Of a stretch of DNA of 64,000 nt, positions 6,282-31,524 are shown in pieces. The DNA lies in assembly GCA_010093605.1 (NCBI GenBank), contig MU004186.1:972616-1036615 (forward strand), in the 5' to 3' direction. Below the pieces are notes generated by a model that saw only the letters and a program-made list of their open reading frames with translations, made no database searches and was not told where the DNA came from. The position numbers were made by a program, and so were the translations under genes. The stretch comes from Lophium mytilinum (lineage: Eukaryota). Every line of letters begins with the position of its first letter. Position 1 is the first letter of the stretch.

Positions 6282-7970
6282 CTACTTCGCCCCATAAGCT
6301 TTGACCTCTCTAATCGGCGTCATCTTGCACTTCAAGGGATGCTTCTGCCAAAGCGTATACACCTCCTGATCCGTCCAATCCTCGCACTCCGGCAGCATCT
6401 CGAGATCAAAATTCCAAAGAACCTTCGACAGGATGATGCGCATTTCGTGATAAGCTAAGCTAGATCGCCCCACCGTTAGCGGAAGCTCAACGCGTACAGA
6501 ACGGTGCACTTACTTCTTGCCGAGACAATTCCTCGGCCCGTATGAGAATGGCTGCAAAGCGAACTTGTCATCGGTTTCGAAGCGCTGGTCTCCAAGCCAG
6601 CGCTCAGGGATGAACGAGTTCGCGTCACGGAAGACCTTCTCGCAAGAGTACATGGCGAATTGAGACACGGAGACGACAGTCTTCTATCAGTCAGTCGCGA
6701 GCGAGAACTGGGTAGGCATGAAGCTTACACCTCCGGGGATCCAATCTCCACATATTGCTGCGCCCTGCGGTGGAACGAGTTGAGGTAGACCGACCGGAAC
6801 AGGTGGATACATACGCAACCCTTCCTCCATACAAGCTTGCAAATATGGTAGACGTTGAAGCCCTTCGATTGTGATTTCGGCGTCTGTCTTGAACGCGCTT
6901 CGAATTTCTTCGTTCAGCTTCTTGAGCACAGAAGGATGCTTCAGCAAGTAGTAGGTCAGGCCGCTGAGCAACGACGCAGTAGTCTCGGTCCCCGCAATCA
7001 TGAACACAGTCGCGTTGGCATACATCTCCCCTCGGGAGAGTCCTCGCCCTTCTTTCGCATTCAGGACTAGATTCCATATGTCAGGCTCGTTGGAACCTCG
7101 GTCAAGACGACGATCGACGCGGCTGGCGGAGTACTCGAAGTGCTTGACGCGCTTTGATTGGAAGGTATTGCCAGTAAGCCACTTCGCAAAGGCGTAGAGC
7201 CTCGGCCAGTAGCGGATGATCCCTATCTTTGAGCCAGTTCGTATGGATTGGAAGATATTCTTAACCCAGGGGACGTAGTCCGAGTTCGTGAGCAAGGAGA
7301 GTGGCTCGCCAAACGCCAGCTCGCTCATGATATCAAAGGTAGTAAAGTTGTACATGCGTACGAGATCACTAACTTGGTCCGGCGCCTCTCCCAGCTTCGA
7401 CACGAGCAGATCAGTATATCTTGCGAAGAGTGACTCCTGCAGCTTCAGCGCGCGGTCAGAGAACGCGTTAGAAAAGATGCGACGGGTCCGGGCGTGGTCA
7501 ACGTCGTTCGCAGAGATGATGGAGTGCACGTTGTTGATTGCTGGCACGAACCAGTCGGGATGCTTGATGATGTTTGGCTTGCCAGGCTTTTGGTGACCGT
7601 GGACGTCTTTCCACGCCTGCGAGCTGTTGAAGCTGAGTTCGTGTGGGGAGACGCGGACAACGTGGCCGTATTTCTCGTGAAGCTCGCAGACCATGGCGAC
7701 TTGCCTACCACGGTATATGTTCACCACATTTGGGATCTGAGTGATAGCGTGTAGCTTGGGGCCGGGGAAGTCCTTGAGGGGATGGAAGTAGAGGCGGTAG
7801 ACGGCAACTCCAAAGAAGCGAATAAGGATCTAAACGTTTAAGTTAGAATGATCAATCGAGGTTGGAAGAGAGTGAATCACGAATACTACGATACCAAGAA
7901 CTGCCCTACCAACTGTTAGGTTTCGTAGAAGATGCGAGGGAACGAAGAGAAGAGCGGATACGGTAGACAT
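6282..7970 (-). CDS. Cytochrome P450 monooxygenase (CYP65/Tri11-like group)
   Basis: Multi-exon. PLKDFPGP proline hinge, I-helix AGTETT, EGLR (ExxR), PERW, and heme motif PFSYGPRNCLG at ~6520-6552. Confidence 0.95.
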
Positions 7971-14001: not shown

Positions 14002-14406
14002 TATACTATCATCCACTATGCTACGTATGGGGGCTATACTGTAAAAGCCGGAGTAGAAGCTATTTCTGAGGGGCACACGGATTACCTGGATTACTGTTCC
14101 TGAAATCGAACAACACCCACCCCCTTCAACAATGCTGCTATGACCACGAATACCAATACGAGCCGCCCCATTTACAGCTTTGAAACTATCTCGAAAAACG
14201 CCCTCAAACCTCTTGGTTACACGCGCGTTGACTACCACCTTTAAAGATCTAGATAGCTCCTTCGCCCTGAAACCTTCTACTCTTCTCTACCCGAACTCCT
14301 TCGAACCACCGGGAGAAACTAAAGTATTTGCATAGAGCAAATTAAGCTCTTGAGCTTGCGAAAGAGAAATGAGGAGAGAAAATATATGGTGTAGAGTCCA
14401 ATGGCA

Positions 14407-16476
14407 TCACTGCCTACTTGTAGTCGACGGTTCGGCGGTTATGATATCGTGAATTTTTCCTACACATGACTCTTAATCCTGCGTCAATAAGACTATTAGA
14501 TCCTTGCTCACTATTCAAGTTCAGTGTGTATGTCGTGATCGCCGATCCATACCTCGCTTCGACGAAGCCTTGCACATCGTAGTACAAGCGCCCGTTTGCG
14601 TGGCGTTTGATTTCGCATTTAATGAGCTCCGAGTGTGGTAAATAATCCAGATCGAAACTTAGATTCACCAAAACCGTAGTGTTAGAATTTCGATGGATTG
14701 GCGCGGTACTGTCACCGTCGTTTGCGAAGATCGTGCACTTTTGGACTTTTACGCCCTCCTGGATATCGGCGTAGACATGAAAGTCAATCTTGCAAGTTTG
14801 ATTTTCTTGAATTGAGTTGCCCTGTGAAACGCGTTATTTCTGTCGATCAGTACGGCTACCAGGATAAATAGTCTTCCCACCTTGTTAATGAACCACGTCA
14901 TCGCGTTAACCACATAACGTTGCCAATCCTTCTCCCACCATCTTGCGACAATCAGTATTGCCCAGGAGTTTGAGATTTTGAGCAGAGTTGCTTACGCTAT
15001 CCTACTATCGTGTCTCGAGTGTTCGAAGAGGGTCATCAACTCTACGCCGTAATGCTTCCGCGCGATCCGGCTTACGACACCAACCGTTCCTAATCCCCCA
15101 CTCGCCCTGCTGATTCCCATCATCGCTGCTCCTCGCACGACTGCTGTCCAGCCATCGGCAGGCTGCAGCACATAAATGGAGGAGGACACTGCGGCTTGAA
15201 CCCGGTTCTTCAAATACTCGCTCTGGCCAAATCCGCCAACCATGAGGATCGCACTCACGCCAGTGGAAATACTAGAAAGTTGTTCTTTGACCAAGTTGAT
15301 TATATCTTGGATAATGGGTTCAAATATTCTCGACTGCATCTCCTCTTGGCTCATCGTGTACCTGTTTCTTCGAACGCCGAGCTCGACGTTCGTATCCATT
15401 TCGACGCGGAGGGTCAAGGGCTCGCCGCTTGGTTTGAATGTCTTCTTGAACTAAATCGTCATTATCAGGAAAATTTTTCAATTTAAATGTGGAGCACGTA
15501 CCAGTTCAAAGTCTTCGTTCGCTTCTGTGAGCCGCTCATCAGTCCAGTAGTCGTTGCCGAAATGGGACTTAAGATGGCTTTGGAAGTTTTTATTGAGCAT
15601 GGATGAGCCGCACATGGCACCTGTCCCTGCCGTAGCCTCCATACTGTCCAGTCGTGGGTGTACCTGGACTACAGTGTACGAAATCAAGTCCACTGTACCG
15701 CCACGAGCATCGCACACTGTGACGCTATTTCCGATTCCTAATTTGGAAAGCTGAGGTTATGAAGGGTATAGCGGGCGGCAGCTTCCTACAGCAAGGTCAG
15801 TACTGAATTTCTTCTTATTGAATAAGAAAGCTGGCCTACTGGTTCTGTGACTACATTCGTCGGGTTGATAGGCCTAAATCCAGCGTTTTCGGCAGCCGTA
15901 AGGGTCTTGTGCTTCGCGGCTTCAGACCATATTGCTGGCACTGTCAAGATGTAGTCAATCGGAGTACTCTTTACAACAGAAGAGGTGAGGCGGCTGTTCA
16001 GCATGTACATCAGGTGGGCATGCATGTGTTTCATGTAACGTTCCGTAAGGTTCTCCGTAGAAAAGCCGTCGGTGGTTACCCCAATCTCAAGGTTCCTAAA
16101 ATCCTGGTCAACTGCATCCATGTAGGGCAGCCTGACTGAGCGTACAGCTTGAAGTATTTGATCTTCTTCGCCGTGTTCGGAATCTGGAACCCCCACTGCC
16201 ATCTCGTATAAGTATCACGCAACTCTGTTGGTACCTTCGGGCTAGTCGTCCATTCCTGCAAGCTATTTGGCCAATGATGGATGACGTTTTGGTAGTCTGG
16301 CTACGATTTCTGTAAGCTTTTGCTCAGGTAGAGGTTGCTAGTATCCGTACGTGTGTTGTTTCAGCCCACGCAAGACCGGAATATGTGGTCCCGAAATCGA
16401 TGGCAACAATTAGCTTTCGCGGATGCGAATTTCCTCCGAGGCTTAGATTCTGGAAGGTATTCTCCATCCCCGCCAT
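14407..16476 (-). CDS. Atypical Hsp70/actin-like ATPase (HSPA12-like); one frameshift, so pseudogene or sequence error
   Basis: IVAIDFGTTYSG, LTVPAIWS, TEP|EAAA, CDARGGTVD (usually DAGGGTVD), LMVGGFGQSEYL, AVVRGA, ARKHYG. About 8 exons. A 1-nt deletion at ~15740 gives an in-frame TAG. Confidence 0.9.
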
Positions 16477-17515
16477 TATCTACAAATGGTTCCTAGGATA
16501 TGTAAAGCGAAGATTGGAGAGCTTGGTGTTCGTCCGAAGAGGATCTTCTGCCTATGCGAAGCATTCAACCCAGGCTTTAAGTCCACAACCGTGGCTCAGG
16601 GTTTCAGTCTACGGCCCCTTTGCGCATTCTGGGATTAGAGTGCGGGGAACTGAAGGGCAAGTGACGGTATTGGAAATGCTGAGAGATATTTCGTTGGCCG
16701 TAACAGCCTTTGCAGGGTTAAGAATCCTTTCTTATGCACTGTGGACGAGACACACTTCCACAAGAAGCGCAATGACGTTGTATGATGGATTTGTTAGCCC
16801 AAGGTATCAGTCTCTCGTGTACTCGTTCAAAATCGCTGCTGGTGTTCGGGCGGACTACACACGCATTGCGTCTCCACCCCTGCTCGTTCGTGGCTGTTTG
16901 CGATAGGTTCGTGATGCAGGATGTTAGCAGCACGTTGGGCCGTTTCTAGGCAGACATTCAGCGAATCAAAACGTTCTCTTGGTTGCAGGACGAGGCAGCA
17001 TCGCATATGCAGCTTCTGAATTAGGCCATTTCCGGAGACCAGCCGTGCGCCCTGCGAACGGTGAACTACCCCAGATTTGAAGCCAGGATGGAAATGGTGG
17101 CCTTGAAGCGGAAGAAGCCCTTTTCTGGACCATATCTTGACGAGGCTGAGACTATCGGCAAAGTCGGCTTCCGCTTCTAGTGCACATGCGCCTCCAAATC
17201 AGTCGTGAGCGTATGAAATATACATGGCACCCGCGACACCAGGACGTTCGGGCAACAAGATATACCGAAATCATTGCAAGGGGCGACGTAGCCCGGTAGA
17301 AGTGAGTCACGAGTCCATATTCTGCGTCCGACCTGGACGCAAAAGAGTCCGCGCAGCTAGTGCTTTTAGTCTCATCAATATTATCTGCCCATGGAGCCTT
17401 CCTCGATGTATTGCTTTTAAACTAGAATGTTCATAATCTACAAGTGACGCAGGTCTGGAGAGCCCTAGCTGATCTCCTTAGAATTCCTCTTACAACCTCG
17501 GCGAGAAAGCAAACA

Positions 17516-18777
17516 ATGGACGACAGAGCGGACACACTGGACGAAAAGCTGAACAAGCTGGAGCACACTTGCAAAGCTCTGCAAGATAGCCTCATGATTC
17601 GTGACAGGACGATCACTACACGCAACGCAGATATCAAGAAGCTCGAAGCAGAACTCCGCGCAGCGAACAGAAGAACTGCTGAATTACAGCGCCAATTGAA
17701 AGACCGGCAGGCTCACGAAAAGGAAACTGAACGAGACCTTAACGAGGCACGTGATCATATCTTCCGACTTCAACCACGACGTCGATCAATAACGGAGACC
17801 GAAGCGCAAGAAGCGTTTCAGAATCTTGTTTCCTCAGTCCAACGATGGGTTGAGAACCGTTTAAACACCATCCTAGATGACCTGGACAGTGACGTCTTGG
17901 ATGCGCGACGATGCGACCCTAAGCTAGCAGAGCGATTCTTGAGCCTGACCCGCCCGAGAGCAGAGAAGTACTTTACTTGCGCCGATGCGGACGAGTTCCA
18001 TGTTACTGCTGCTATCATGCAGTATCTTTGTCAGCATTTCTTCGACAAAGATTTCTATGCTCCGTTAGATGATGGACTAGTTGATGGCAAAGGTACTTTG
18101 AAGCTCATCGAAGAGATTGGAATAAGCATGCGCCAACTTCCCAGAGGTAAATGACCACCAAATTATGAGGGTATCCCAAGCTAACGTTCAGCCCAGAAAT
18201 CTCTCAATGCAGATCTTGGAGAAGCGAGACACTAGCAGCTCTCGTCCGTCAACCGGAGTTCGACAAACGGCGCTCAGCATATCTAGAAAACCACACCAAT
18301 ACCCTAACCCAGCTGCTGACTGTGGTGGTTACGGGCACAAGTGCAAGAGGGCTGCCTGAGTCCGTCTGGAACAGCATGATTAAGCCAGCCATGGAATTGG
18401 CACACGAGCTGCAGCTGTCAACCGATATGTTCTCCGTCAAATGGACACCGATTAATTCGGCCAATGGACAGACTGACTACGAGAAACAAGACGACCTTGG
18501 GAAGTACATATGTGTGAACGTGCTACAATTCGGTAAAGTCCTCAAGTTGCCGCGAGGCCAGTCCTCACCTGATGAGACGCGGATCATGTACTTATTCGAT
18601 ATTTGCCCGGGCCTGTTTTGTCAGAGCGTCAAGGATGATTCTCACCCCCCAGAGAGAATCCTTTGCAAGCCAAGGGTGCTGGTGGCTGCTTCGGAAGGTA
18701 AGCAGAAGCTTGCACCGAAAGGTCCTACGGTCATGGAGTGGATACTCGATGCAACCAAGGACGGCATGGCCGTGTAA
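17516..18777 (+). CDS. Coiled-coil protein divergently paired with the Hsp70-like gene; C-terminus GrpE-like by eye
   Basis: N-terminal heptad coiled coil; intron ~18147-18196; WRSETL motif; C-terminal ICPGLF..ERILCKPRVLV. Start codon uncertain. Confidence 0.8.
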
Positions 18778-19647
18778 CCTTATGATAGATTGTATGTCTT
18801 TTGAGAAGCTATATCAAAGGATGAAGTTTTATCGGAAGCGATATCACCCATGCTGCATGCAACTACAAGTCAAATCGGTTCATCATTCTGGCGAGTAAAG
18901 ATTGGTCCGACTAAACTTTAGGAAAGCGATGAAGGGTAGAAAGAGGAAACAAATCTCAGCCTTGTTGCCTACGAGGCTGAATGTTCACACCTTTGACTCG
19001 TCAGCCGCACCATCTCGCAGGGATCATGCAACCCGCGCATGACCCATCTGCCAAACTGTATCACAGCTCAAGTTATCACATCTATAGCTCGATTCATGGG
19101 CCAATGCGTCTTGTGAACGCTGCGAAACAAACAGCTTCATGGCCCTGCAAAAGCTACCATTGGAATATCGTCCGGAAGACCTTTCTCTCAACCGCCTTCT
19201 TTTGGCCGAAATGGTTCGCAGCGTCTGTAACCAGGCGCTTTAGGGATCGGACGGTACCCTCGGGCAGGCTGAATATATTCTCCCGCAGTTCATCGGTCTC
19301 CTTTTCGTTCCGCGTTTGACTGCCCTGTTCAGCCTTGTCTCTCCGAAAGCATCACCTTGCGCTTCTTTCTTCTTCCTCTCCATCATAGCACATGACTCGG
19401 CACAGTAGTTCCAACTTCGGCGTGGAATTCGAGTCTATCGTGAGACCAGATGCCAATCGCCAGTCCTGTACCGAGAGCGAGGGGTACAGAAATTGGTCGA
19501 CAAACTCACAAACCGGCACATACCCACTGTGGCCGACAACCTAACGTCTTCTTATCGTAAGCATCCAGAGTATCAAGGCAGGAGGTGGTTCATCGCCGGG
19601 GACGGCTCATAGTAGATCAAGCGCGAAGGTCTTCGTAAAGTGAAGGA

Positions 19648-28530: not shown

Positions 28531-31524
28531 ATGTCGGCAGATCAAAAGGGCACATGAGCCGATAAGTCAGACGGTAGGCAACGTGACAACTATTAGTGCA
28601 GGTGCACACACGGAGATTAAGTTAACACTGGGCGACCAGAGTAAGGCCATTCACTCGCCTCTGCTGCGAATCGCGCTGAAAATGGCTAATTCTCATAGCT
28701 GCGAAACGTCAGACTCTTCAGAAATGGTTTGCACCTTGGCTATTCGATGGTGATAGTACGAGTCGGACACAACCGGATATCCTGGAAGAGCGTCGAAGTC
28801 TATCCGCTTCAGGGTGCGGTACTTGGCTCACGGAAGGCGTTCTGCCTGAATGGCTAAGATCTAGCAATGATTCTCTCTGGCTACACGGGAGTGTGGGATG
28901 CGGCAAAAGCATACTATGCTCTCAAGTAATTGGATACTTTCAAGAACGTCTGGGATCTGATATCACACCTACGCACCATCTTGTGGTACCGGCCTTTTTT
29001 GCATTTGACTTGAAATACACGCATCTCTCGGGTTTTCTAGCCCGAACACTGCTCGCAAAGCTATGCGCACTTGAGCATGTCCCCCTCGAGATCGAAGAAG
29101 CGTACCAATCTACTACATCTGCCTCGAATCTTGTCAATATCGCCGCAATAGTCAGGAATATATTGGCTGAACTCAACGAGGACGCCGTACAGAAGACATC
29201 AAGCCTAAGCACTATCAAGAAGAAGCCTATCAATCTCGTTCTCATCCTCGATGCTATTAACGAGATACCGGAGGAGCGACAGCAAAGAAATCTTCACTTC
29301 ATAAACCAGCTTGTTCGTATGAACGGCGATGGCCAGCAGATTCGTTTACGCATGTTGCTATTGAGCCGTAAAAATCCCATCATACAGCATCATTGTGCGC
29401 CAGAGCAAGGATGGCAGCATACGTGCATTCCGAAAAGGGAAGTTCATGGTGATATACGGACAGCGGTGCAAAGTCGGCTTCGTCGTCACCGGAGCTTGCG
29501 CGAAGACAGCAGGGCAAAGGCAGGAGATGCCGTCAATTCTGAAATCTTGGAAAAGGCAGGCGGAATACAAGTAATACTCATCTTTTGGATGCTCATTGGC
29601 TAACGAATACAGATTTCGCCTTGCGGGCTTGTACTTGGACGAGATAGACCACAAAATACAACAGTAGAATGTAGTCATCGACGAGTTCCGTTCCTTGATT
29701 GAGAGCATGCCTACCGGTCTCGACCAGTTCTTGTTGGATGAAAAAGCACACCCCGCCTAAGATTAGGGGGACCGGAAAATAAGCGATATTATAACACTCC
29801 AACAGTTCTACCATAGTATCCTGAGCAAGATTGAAGACGAGACCTTGCGCCGACATATCGCCCATGCGCTTCGCTGGGTGCTGTGTGCAGCCAGACCTCT
29901 GCTGACGGAAGAATTGGTCGAGGCCTGTGCGATGCTTCATCAGCCTCACGAGCGTCTGGCGCTAAGGCTGAGTCACGACGATATCTTCGATCCTCTTAGT
30001 GGACTGCTCACAATTTAATCGTCATTGAAGGGCAAACGTGCTGTGCGCTTAGCACACGCTTCTGTTGGCGATTACCTGGGTAGGTTGTACCAGATGGAGC
30101 AAAACATCTTGAAAGACTGGAGCATGGAGGCTTCTTTCTTCTCGCGACACGAGGCGCACTTCCAGCTCACCAAATATTGCTTCGCCTATCTTGTATATGC
30201 CTTCGAGGCTCGAAATGAAGACATAGTAGTCGATGAAGGCGATGGGCGCGCCGCCGTAGATCTGGATGGTCACAGCGATCTGATATCTAGGTTTCCAATG
30301 CTGGAGTATGTGCTATCCTGTTGGTCCTACCATGCGGCATCTCATATTCAGGATTCTGCGCAAACCTGGCGGCAACGCCTCATCTCGTCCGACATTAAGG
30401 AATCGATCCAAAGTCGAAAGACGGTGCTCAGAAACGGGGGCTTCGATCTTTCGTTTCTTTGGAATTTTATCGTGCTCTTGATGCTATGGTCTTTTCGGCT
30501 CATAGCGGGTAAACTCTTGCAAAGCGCAATCTACACAGAGCTCGACTCAGTCTCCCTGCTCGCATTGGAGCGTAGGACATCAAACTCATCCAGGGCAGGC
30601 CTAACTTATCGCAAATGCCCTCAGCTTAATAGTTTCCTACTCTCACAAGTGAAACGTATCGCAGATTCTGCGTTGACTCGTGGGCAGCAAGATGCTCTCT
30701 TTGCAAAGGCATTACGCTCTCCGAATGCTGCCTTCGAGTCAGTCTTTGGCGATCAACTTCACTTTGGTATCGGATTTGACCAGTACCCCAGAGCTTCAAG
30801 ACTCCTCGCTATCCATCCCTCGCAAGACCCACGCTCACACGTTTCATGCAGCTTAGTCACCGACTCCCTAGAAAATTTGGCACAGTACGAGTTCGTTTCC
30901 TCCGAATAGGACAACCTGGATCAACACGAACTAAGTTACGTCAACGGTCGAGCTATAGAGATCAGGACGAAGACGCCTGCTAAAGCCTTGCGCCGCTTAC
31001 GTCGAGCCTCCGATACTCGCGTGGTCTGGTTCGGTCCAATCTGTAAGAGCGATGAAAAGACTTCGCTGCTCAATTCGATGGCGATCGTGAAGAGGCTTAA
31101 TGACGACCGATTAGCACTTGCAGAGGAGTTTGAGGACTACTTCGCAATCACAAGGAGGCTTTGGGACTACTTACCATTCGGTGAACTGACAGTGACAATG
31201 AGTGTCACTGAACCCATCAAGATGTCGGACGACTTGGAACTTTTCGAACTAATAAAGTATGCCACTAGAACCATCATGTGGAAGGATCAAGATCAAATGA
31301 TGCGCCTTGAAGATCACTCTGAGTCTACAGTCACGAAATCTATAGAGCCTAGGCAGTCATCCGCAATGGACTTTCCAGTGGGCTTTACAGACAGATCCCC
31401 GCCTGTCGAGAAACCTCGACCTAGCAGAAAGGCGCCGTACAGCTTACGCAACACACTCCTAAGCCTCCTCTTATATACCGCCTTTCTGACTATGGTCTAT
31501 GTATTCGTAAACGCACTCTCTTGA
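28531..31524 (+). pseudogene. NACHT NLR-like gene: N-terminal amyloid motif, NACHT, winged helix, degenerate HET domain, C-terminal hydrophobic tail
   Basis: Exon 1 ISQTVGNVTTISAGAHTEI; intron 28641-28698; Walker A LWLHGSVGCGKS; Walker B LILDAINE; ALRWVLCAARPL..EL and VRLAHASVGDYL. Frameshift at ~28544-28550; stops at 29665, 30016 and 30907. Confidence 0.88.

Follow-up and report, generated by a model that had tools for sequence, protein, structure and literature searches.

The locus and its two genes

A stretch of 64,000 nucleotides from Lophium mytilinum (Dothideomycetes, Mytilinidiales), positions 972,616 to 1,036,615 of contig MU004186.1 in assembly GCA_010093605.1 and called the window here, contains two divergent genes that lie head-to-head: one for an Hsp70-like ATPase, presumably of the type that database usage calls HSPA12, and one for a coiled-coil protein, referred to below as the partner. 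Both are deposited as hypothetical proteins of Lophium mytilinum. Comparison of their relatives and a complex prediction make it somewhat more probable than an even chance that they belong to a two-gene module, old and conserved among filamentous ascomycetes, which combines an HSPA12-type ATPase with a dedicated exchange-factor-like partner. A preliminary description, made from the letters of the window alone, had reported an atypical Hsp70 gene head-to-head with a coiled-coil gene across about 1 kb, and both genes were found where it had placed them, with a spacer of 1,039 bp, as follows (all positions are those of the window).

16476..14414, minus strand: HSPA12-type Hsp70-like ATPase gene (P0002, KAF2497640.1); its exon list translates exactly to P0002
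16467-16351, 16300-16146, 16095-15804, 15750-15502, 15450-14996, 14941-14881 and 14821-14414, minus strand: exons of the ATPase gene in the deposited model
16476, minus strand: upstream in-frame ATG of the ATPase gene
16477-17515: divergent spacer, 1,039 bp between the two start codons, presumed to contain a shared promoter region
17516-18146, plus strand: partner exon 1 (residues 1-210 and the first base of codon 211)
18147-18196, plus strand: partner intron of 50 nt, phase 1, GTAAAT...CAG with a CTAAC branch site; the spliced product is P0001
18197-18777, plus strand: partner exon 2 (residues 211-403), with the stop codon at 18775-18777

The ATPase gene encodes a protein of 578 residues (P0002) in seven exons that are separated by six introns of 50-59 nt. 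The Pfam profile HSP70 (PF00012) matches residues 113-382 (profile positions 111-371 of 599; score 30.4 bits, cut-off 20.6 bits) and covers the nucleotide-binding part only, the C-terminal exon is without a significant Pfam match at E<=1, and the protein ends in ...RRTVDYK, all of which agrees with the initial view of an Hsp70-like protein that lacks a canonical lid and an EEVD tail. A profile of the ATPase family matches the nucleotide-binding domains (NBDs) of DnaK and Hsc70 (best E 7e-16; 118 PDB sequences at E<=0.001), and searches of the ATPases with PADLOC and NCBIfam produced weak DnaK/HscA rows only. Judged from these matches, P0002 is a lid-less ATPase of the Hsp70 superfamily, in which neither a canonical substrate-binding domain nor a helical lid nor EEVD is present. 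In addition, the Pfam accession PF27033.1 appears in the precomputed annotation of four of the Hsp70-like proteins (P0004, P0017, P0037 and P0058) and may be a new family over the C-terminal domain of the ATPase.

The partner family

The partner (P0001, 'hypothetical protein BU16DRAFT_606214 [Lophium mytilinum]') has 403 residues and is identical to the spliced translation of the two exons. Its AlphaFold2 (AF2) model, with a predicted local distance difference test (pLDDT) of 84 and a predicted template-modelling score (pTM) of 0.76, contains a helix at residues 2-84, a helical domain at 94-283, six strands within 288-377 and a last helix. The model and the translation bear out the arrangement that had been read from the sequence, namely an N-terminal coiled coil, a helical middle and a C-terminal YLFDICPGLFCQSVKDDSHPPERILCKPRVLVAA. 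The parts of the protein map to the window in the following way.

17519-17767, plus strand: coiled coil of the partner, residues 2-84
17765-17851, plus strand: most conserved motif of the partner, RLQPRRxxITETEAQ...VQRWV, residues 84-112
18427-18696, plus strand: beta-rich domain of the partner, residues 288-377, after the three helices of exon 2
18589-18618, plus strand: YLFDICPGLF, in partner exon 2
near 18670-18690, plus strand: KPRVLV, in partner exon 2

A word-indexed search with exon 2 matched P0001 alone, and the family emerged with a full HMMER scan of exon 1, which yielded 137 cluster representatives at E<=0.001, including P0001, and 76 at <=1e-10. These matches extend well past the coiled coil, and full-length relatives align to the C-terminal end and have variable N-terminal extensions. 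The named members come from Dothideomycetes, Leotiomycetes and Sordariomycetes, and the family has as its signatures DHIFRLQPRRxxITETEAQ..F..L...VQRWV, DE.HV.A.IM.YL...F...FYCPL and LPRD...CR.WR.E.L.AL, plus the shorter YLFD..PGL, KP.VLV and GPT...WL. None of the 20 columns that are invariant in the 21 aligned relatives of P0001 is broken in P0001 itself, and by this comparison the Lophium partner looks intact.

Searches for known domains in the partner family returned coiled-coil noise only, both with Pfam (in 50 relatives at a limit of E<=0.001, in 87 at one of E<=0.0001) and with a sequence profile search of the PDB (best E 0.0049). PADLOC and NCBIfam likewise gave nothing past coiled-coil noise for the partners, including a ZorA row (E 0.00024) for one of the bacterial partners described below. 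Two weak matches of the HMMER scan, to a repeat protein (P0208) and to a methyltransferase with a TIR_2 domain (P0253), have the look of chance similarity between coiled coils or repeats. The precomputed annotation of partner proteins also contains the Pfam accessions PF27695.1 (P0278) and PF27954.1 (P0286); the family may be on record there already, as a domain of unknown function.

Linkage of the two families in other fungi

The relationship between the two genes was examined at other loci. In a scan of metagenomes, 107 pattern matches reduced to two loci, one of which (L002, 2,064 bp) is too short to hold a neighbour. The other contig (L001) carries a relative of the partner at 6442-7687 (plus strand) and one of the Hsp70-like protein at 5495-3559 (minus strand), again head-to-head and with 946 bp between them. 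By tblastx, this contig is collinear with the window across the pair only (L001 3930-7687 and window 14878-18759), and matches elsewhere do not exceed 29 bits.

Among named genomes, with the best 120 of 157 Hsp70-like matches taken into the comparison, one member of each family occurs under neighbouring locus tags in Plenodomus lindquistii (NX059_009643 and NX059_009644) and in Cudoniella acicularis (G7Y89_g1184 and G7Y89_g1185). In Delitschia confertaspora the two accessions are two apart (KAF2199489 and KAF2199491) on one contig of 50,526 bp, and one more partner relative and Hsp70-like relative are each found on a contig of 18,905 bp. Both proteins are also encoded on a single scaffold in Aaosphaeria arxii (1,689,044 bp) and in a Xylogone species (5,548,043 bp), where a common scaffold does not imply adjacency. 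The linked cases come from two classes, Dothideomycetes and Leotiomycetes. At every locus that could be inspected the pairing is conserved and is not a chance neighbourhood.

A comparison of pairwise identities in six species gave correlated matrices for the two proteins (r=0.71; 5 of 720 permutations reach this value), and both matrices group the six species by taxonomy. The correlation fits joint vertical descent of the pair.

A predicted complex at the nucleotide cleft

Complex prediction for the Delitschia pair (P0014/P0132) gave a score of 0.74 (runs of 0.72, 0.74 and 0.75) and 0.00 for each of three controls, with a partner pLDDT of at least 79 and at least 70% of contacts common to the runs. 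The mark used for this score is passed by 51 of 78 solved complexes as against 2 of 108 mismatched pairs and, in a calibration on eukaryotes, by 39 of 65 novel solved pairs as against 2 of 126 unrelated pairs; in a blind test of the predictor, 7 of 44 neighbouring pairs passed. Complex prediction had been proposed in the preliminary description as a check on the pair, and its result (0.74 against a best control of 0.00) went in favour of the idea. Linkage in two fungal classes despite differing flanks, together with a predicted interface that passes its controls, likewise upholds the suggestion that the two genes are a dedicated pair.

On the partner side, three elements make up the predicted interface: the helix that comes next after the coiled coil and carries ITETEAQ..VQRWV, a further helix at the invariant Ser266, and a loop of the beta domain with the invariant Gly323. 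Among the predicted contacts are E94, E96, W111, S266 and G323 of the partner (P0001 numbering) and R289 of the ATPase (P0014 numbering). Conservation is higher at the partner positions in the interface than in the remainder of the protein (0.655 against 0.51; 60 of 10,000 random sets reach this value), and the invariant residues E72, W87, S244 and G302 (in the numbering of Delitschia) are among these positions. On the ATPase side, the predicted contacts involve residues 33, 45-48, 254-265 and 270-291, which a profile alignment to 1dkg_D relates to about positions 28-35, 257-270 and 274-295 of DnaK. GrpE contacts DnaK at 28-33, 51-61, the helix 255-272 and the hairpin 276-302, as published (PMC10825016), and subdomain IIB is given in a review as the target of all nucleotide-exchange factors (NEFs), whatever their fold (PMC4753570). 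The partner is thus predicted, on the model of this complex, to bind the top of the ATPase nucleotide cleft at the exchange-factor site.

Relationship of the partner to GrpE

The initial proposal went further than a dedicated pair, in that the partner was held to resemble GrpE, and comparison with GrpE by profile and fold searches had been named as the way to examine this. PF01025, the Pfam family of GrpE, is absent from the 19 matches listed for P0001 at E<=10 and from the 25 families that 22 members of the partner family hit most frequently, and in the 137 partner relatives no GrpE match was found at E<=0.001 (50 scanned) or E<=0.0001 (87 scanned). When the partner family was compared by hhalign with a GrpE profile made of 10 GrpEs taken from bacterial genomes, the probabilities were 10% for the coiled coil, 0.4% for the C-terminus and 0.1% for the globular part. 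The best local path places PGLF...KPRVLVAA on GY..RVLRxAxVxVA, which is the pairing that the preliminary description had drawn, at an E value of 0.16.

Among the Foldseek matches of the whole partner model a single GrpE is listed, in tenth place (E 0.13, TMq 0.14), and two Foldseek and two VIA searches, made with the whole model and with a C-terminal model (pLDDT 78.5), found no clear match to the partner; for the C-terminal model, neither the VIA-wide nor the Foldseek matches listed include a GrpE row. In the ESM Atlas, a bacterial 'GrpE domain-containing' cluster is among the 30 nearest, with template-modelling (TM) scores of 0.25/0.31 over 112 residues, which lie below the bar of the tool and are no more than a lead. 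By these profile comparisons, membership of the partner in the GrpE family is not supported, so of the proposed GrpE-like nature the part that stands is the placement of predicted contacts on NBD stretches that GrpE contacts, and the part that does not is descent within the GrpE family, for which the profile check turned out negative (hhalign at most 10%) and the Foldseek and VIA searches gave no clear match (as the sole GrpE row, the one at Foldseek rank 10).

The bacterial relatives of the ATPase provide a reference for this result. When prokaryotic genomes were scanned with the ATPase family of the fungi, 25 loci (L003-L027) were identified at 21-34% identity; they hold the nearest prokaryotic relatives found and include Nocardia, Streptomyces, Longispora, Catenulispora and Planctomycetota. 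In 17 of the 25, the ATPase gene is followed immediately, on its own strand, by a frame for a coiled-coil protein whose C-terminal domain is GrpE-like (15 of these 17 built the model, and two are new). Compared with GrpE by hhalign, this bacterial partner family reaches 78.6% (E 1.7e-5) with its whole alignment and 87.7% (E 3.4e-6) with its C-terminus; as a positive control, these values of 79-88% therefore show that hhalign is able to see distant GrpEs. Comparison of the fungal with the bacterial partners gave 0.5-35%, on the coiled coil only, and 0.5-1.2% outside it. Because a GrpE-like gene follows these bacterial relatives, the principle of a private GrpE-type partner holds in bacteria, and the fungal partner would be either an unrecognisable descendant of the bacterial GrpE-like partner or a replacement for it.

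Other arrangements were also seen in prokaryotes. At two cyanobacterial loci (L019:6747-9339 and L021:6747-9306), an HSPA12-type gene is followed by one for a coiled-coil protein of about 650 residues, which in L019 has a weak GrpE row (E 0.0045), and then by one for a radical-SAM/4Fe-4S protein; these loci are a different, three-gene version of the module. In addition, four loci (L034, L035, L042 and L043, in genomes G001, G003, G009 and G006, respectively) contain, besides the canonical grpE, second PF01025 matches of 26-35 bits that cover the C-terminal part only, in open frames of 192-234 residues, and these frames may be further private GrpE-like genes.

Damage to the ATPase gene in Lophium

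In an alignment of seven relatives of the ATPase, the segment SEPEAAA-IYTLH..L.vG..fvvCDAGGGTVDL is continuous. In the Lophium gene, a 54-nt GT..AG intron comes after TEP, EAAARYTLHNLSF follows the intron, and the frame is 1 base short before KLGIGNSVTVCDARGGTVDL. The features concerned are listed here.

15786..15839, minus strand: 54-nt GT..AG intron (GTAGGC...TAG) that would preserve the EPEAAA helix of the family, placed by reading the sequence and by the alignment of 7 relatives
15803-15751, minus strand: alternative intron of 53 nt in the deposited model, which swaps the EAAA helix for VGQLSYSIRRNS
15745..15749, minus strand: inferred 1-nt deletion in a TTTCC run; with EPEAAA-preserving splicing, the frame shifts here and ends at the TAG at 15740-15738, codon 192
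15703..15705, minus strand: CGT codon, Arg for the first Gly of the DAGGGT phosphate-2 loop, which reads DARGGT

Splicing that preserves EPEAAA produces a coding sequence of 1,736 nt that lacks 1 nt and runs into a stop at codon 192. With one base restored, the product reads ...HNLSFxKLGIGNS..., which is equal in length to the ...HNLGAPTLSVGKT... of the relatives. The phosphate-loop Gly is invariant in 36 of 36 relatives, and P0002 breaks 5 of the 54 columns that are invariant in these 36, as compared with 0-3 for each relative when left out in turn. The EPEAAA and DAGGGT motifs are intact in the copies from Delitschia, Aaosphaeria and other fungi, but not in the Lophium copy, the remainder of which is well kept and contains no further stop. 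Two separate assemblies, made from DNA runs of a single sample from which this DNA probably comes, show 0 differences from the window over 14300-18900, and the deletion is therefore no artefact of this assembly. A 1-nt deletion and a Gly-to-Arg exchange in a gene that is otherwise well kept therefore indicate that the Lophium ATPase gene was recently damaged, or is at best ATPase-dead. What Lophium has at this locus is probably a copy of the module in decay.

The deposited gene model stays open by means of an intron that lies about 35 nt off the EPEAAA-preserving position (window 15751-15839, minus strand), and the annotation pipeline may in this way have masked a frameshift.

The spacer and the surroundings of the pair

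The spacers of the window and of L001 are without a heat-shock element and without a common block. Two segments of the Lophium spacer, 16694-16738 and 17109-17150 (45 and 42 nt), are small dispersed repeats, each of which recurs with 6 differences on further long contigs from those DNA runs; the second repeat (17109-17150) is present in run X3 as well. In this run, which carries another organism label and is guessed to be RNA, only the partner of the two genes is represented, by two pieces of identical sequence (17800-17955 and 18194-18426, at a depth of 2-3). The second piece begins 3 nt inside the partner intron, and the X3 pieces are proof of neither transcription nor silence.

Around the pair, the window contains ordinary enzyme and transporter genes and one open frame of the NOD-like receptor (NLR) type, with an even GC content. 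This open frame, at 28680-29600 on the plus strand and perhaps continuing to 30019-30906, matches NPHP3_N (NACHT-type NTPase N-terminal; E 9.4e-18) and probably represents a fungal gene of NLR-like type, some 10 kb away from the pair.

Relationship to known Hsp70 systems

Like DnaK and GrpE (PDB 1DKG), the fungal pair combines an Hsp70-fold ATPase with a partner in which a long helix leads into a helical part and then into a small beta domain, and its predicted contacts fall on stretches that align with the loop 28-33, the IIB helix 255-272 and the hairpin 276-302. The fungal partner has no detectable relation to GrpE in sequence or fold, contains a helical domain of about 190 residues and would make most of its contacts through helices rather than the beta domain; the fungal ATPase, in turn, is without a canonical substrate-binding domain or lid, and the genes are divergent eukaryotic ones that form no operon. 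The bacterial pairs of HSPA12-type and GrpE-like proteins share with the fungal pair a dedicated coiled-coil partner that adjoins a related ATPase, but their partners have 230-330 residues and a GrpE-like C-terminus, whereas the fungal ones have about 400.

The BAG domain, HspBP1/Sil1 and Hsp110 have unrelated folds and all act on lobe IIB (PMC4753570), and the fungal partner would be one more such protein if the predicted placement is right. None of the fold searches related the partner to the three-helix bundles of BAG, to armadillo repeats or to Hsp110. The ribosome-associated complex of Ssz1 and Zuo1 is comparable in that an atypical Hsp70 forms a stable pair with a largely helical protein, according to a 2026 review (PMC13580251), but the fungal partner has no J domain by Pfam match and nothing ties the pair to ribosomes. 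The same review describes animal HSPA12A and HSPA12B as Hsp70-superfamily ATPases without a helical lid and of unknown function (PMC13580251), and a literature search found no partner of the fungal kind described for them.

Among named families, the closest look-alikes of the globular part of the partner in the ESM Atlas are MIEAP (PF16026) and the C-terminal domain of plant GIL1/IRKI (PF24994, with DUF641), which are coiled-coil proteins too. These likenesses, with feature values of 0.77-0.81 below the bar of 0.9 and TM scores by query of 0.46 and 0.50 over about 200 residues, are leads only. The MIEAP and GIL1_IRKI_C profiles had no match in P0001 at E<=10 and no significant one in the 137 relatives, and a literature search gave no link of either family to Hsp70s. 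A basidiomycete cluster of the Atlas (100 members, 628 residues; structure row 4 for P0001 88-383) has a TM score by query of 0.63, below the bar of the tool, and an MMR_HSR1 GTPase domain is present in 57% of its members; on the strength of the models, this cluster may represent a fusion of a partner-like domain to a different NTPase.

A proposed module and alternative explanations

In the proposed two-gene module, a lid-less HSPA12-type ATPase would act together with the product of a divergent gene across a spacer of about 1 kb, which consists of a coiled coil, a helical domain and a small beta domain. The coiled coil is putative as a dimerisation element and probably joins two partner molecules. 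The partner would grip the top of the nucleotide cleft through the NBD loop aligned with DnaK 28-34 and through the helix and hairpin of lobe IIB, and in this position it might control the nucleotide state of the ATPase as an exchange-factor-like co-factor, that is, as a functional analogue of GrpE. It could have arisen from a GrpE that diverged beyond detection or by independent invention. In Lophium, the module would have an ATPase that is decaying or ATPase-dead and a partner that still looks intact.

Several observations weigh against a conserved module of this kind. The linkage cases cover part of the family, in that the partner relatives from Amylocarpus and the Sordariomycetes (Fusarium, Ophiocordyceps, Hirsutella, Cordyceps, Drechmeria, Gaeumannomyces, Cladobotryum and Conoideocrella) count as neither positive nor negative cases, and Aaosphaeria and Xylogone contribute a shared scaffold only. 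The correlation between the identity matrices is equally expected from species history alone. On the ATPase side, interface positions are no more conserved than others (0.556 against 0.585; 6,950 of 10,000 random sets reach this value), which may either count against the predicted complex or reflect a mixed alignment. Binding is itself a prediction, made by a predictor that disregarded the alignments supplied to it and that may lean on learned Hsp70-NEF geometry, and no sequence or fold evidence ties the partner to GrpE or to another known exchange factor. Finally, the ATPase is damaged in Lophium and the module may, given this damage, be dispensable.

One alternative, which we regard as doubtful, is that the partner is a stable structural subunit, an adaptor or an inhibitor, for example a lock on the cleft or a coiled-coil tether like zuotin with Ssz1. 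The linkage and the predicted complex would suit such a role, the long coiled coil and the variable N-terminal extensions suit a tether, the Atlas look-alikes (MIEAP and GIL1/IRKI, as leads only) are not chaperone co-factors, and the Lophium partner looks intact despite its damaged ATPase; the predicted footprint, however, is that of known exchange factors, and no targeting domain was found in the partner. Another explanation, that the partner is a true but extremely diverged GrpE which descends from the bacterial GrpE-like partners and works as a dimer in the manner of GrpE, is unlikely. It would account for the common order of parts (long helix, helices, then a small beta domain for which six strands are predicted), for a predicted footprint that matches the one of GrpE and for the GrpE-like partners of the bacterial ATPase relatives, and both the best hhalign path of the C-terminus, which is the one first proposed though at E 0.16, and the Atlas GrpE cluster (TM 0.25/0.31) point in its direction. 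Against it stand hhalign values of 0.1-10% with GrpE and 0.5-35% with the bacterial partners, the highest of which fall on the coiled coil, the lack of GrpE in the Pfam searches and among the VIA and Foldseek matches of the C-terminal model, and a helical domain (94-283) that is far larger than the GrpE bundle.

That the two genes are co-regulated neighbours on a bidirectional promoter, with products that do not touch, is decidedly improbable: divergent pairs can persist for regulatory reasons, and passes of the complex test are not rare among neighbours (7 of 44), but the score of 0.74 against controls of 0.00 comes with conserved partner residues in the interface, there is no conserved block in the spacers of the window and L001, and linkage persists where the flanks have been replaced. 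The preliminary description had also placed the pair in accessory DNA, in an arrangement like that of allorecognition or immune gene pairs, and a function of this type or as a toxin and antidote has very little to recommend it. The patchy distribution of the family among named genomes, the decay of the ATPase in Lophium, the NPHP3_N frame 10 kb away and a weak EAD9 match in 2 of 22 partner relatives (best E 0.0085) would fit such a pair. This placement was nevertheless not borne out, in that both proteins group the six species by taxonomy, GC content is uniform, the neighbours are ordinary enzyme genes, no HET, NACHT/NB-ARC, HeLo, gasdermin, TIR, pore-forming or nuclease domain was found by Pfam in P0001, P0002 or their relatives, and PADLOC gave no match for P0001, P0132 or P0014. 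The two-gene module with an exchange-factor-like partner is the favoured explanation.

Implications for HSPA12-type proteins

A literature search found no description of the fungal pair, of the partner locus tags, of a link between HSPA12 and GrpE or MIEAP, of a co-factor for HSPA12, or of the bacterial pair. HSPA12-type Hsp70s are widespread, and a conserved fungal partner at a predicted exchange-factor site provides a concrete, testable handle on them. It is a speculative and rather unlikely extension of the module that the partner family represents a further structural class of Hsp70 exchange factors, or a GrpE past recognition, that is dedicated to HSPA12-type ATPases; if this were true, HSPA12-type Hsp70s from bacteria to fungi would always work with a private coiled-coil exchange factor. 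If the faint likeness to MIEAP and GIL1/IRKI is real, those animal and plant proteins could in turn be co-factors of the Hsp70 superfamily. Taken together, the bacterial and fungal pairs suggest, as a general rule, that each orphan Hsp70 has its private exchange factor, and this rule could guide work on the HSPA12 proteins of animals.

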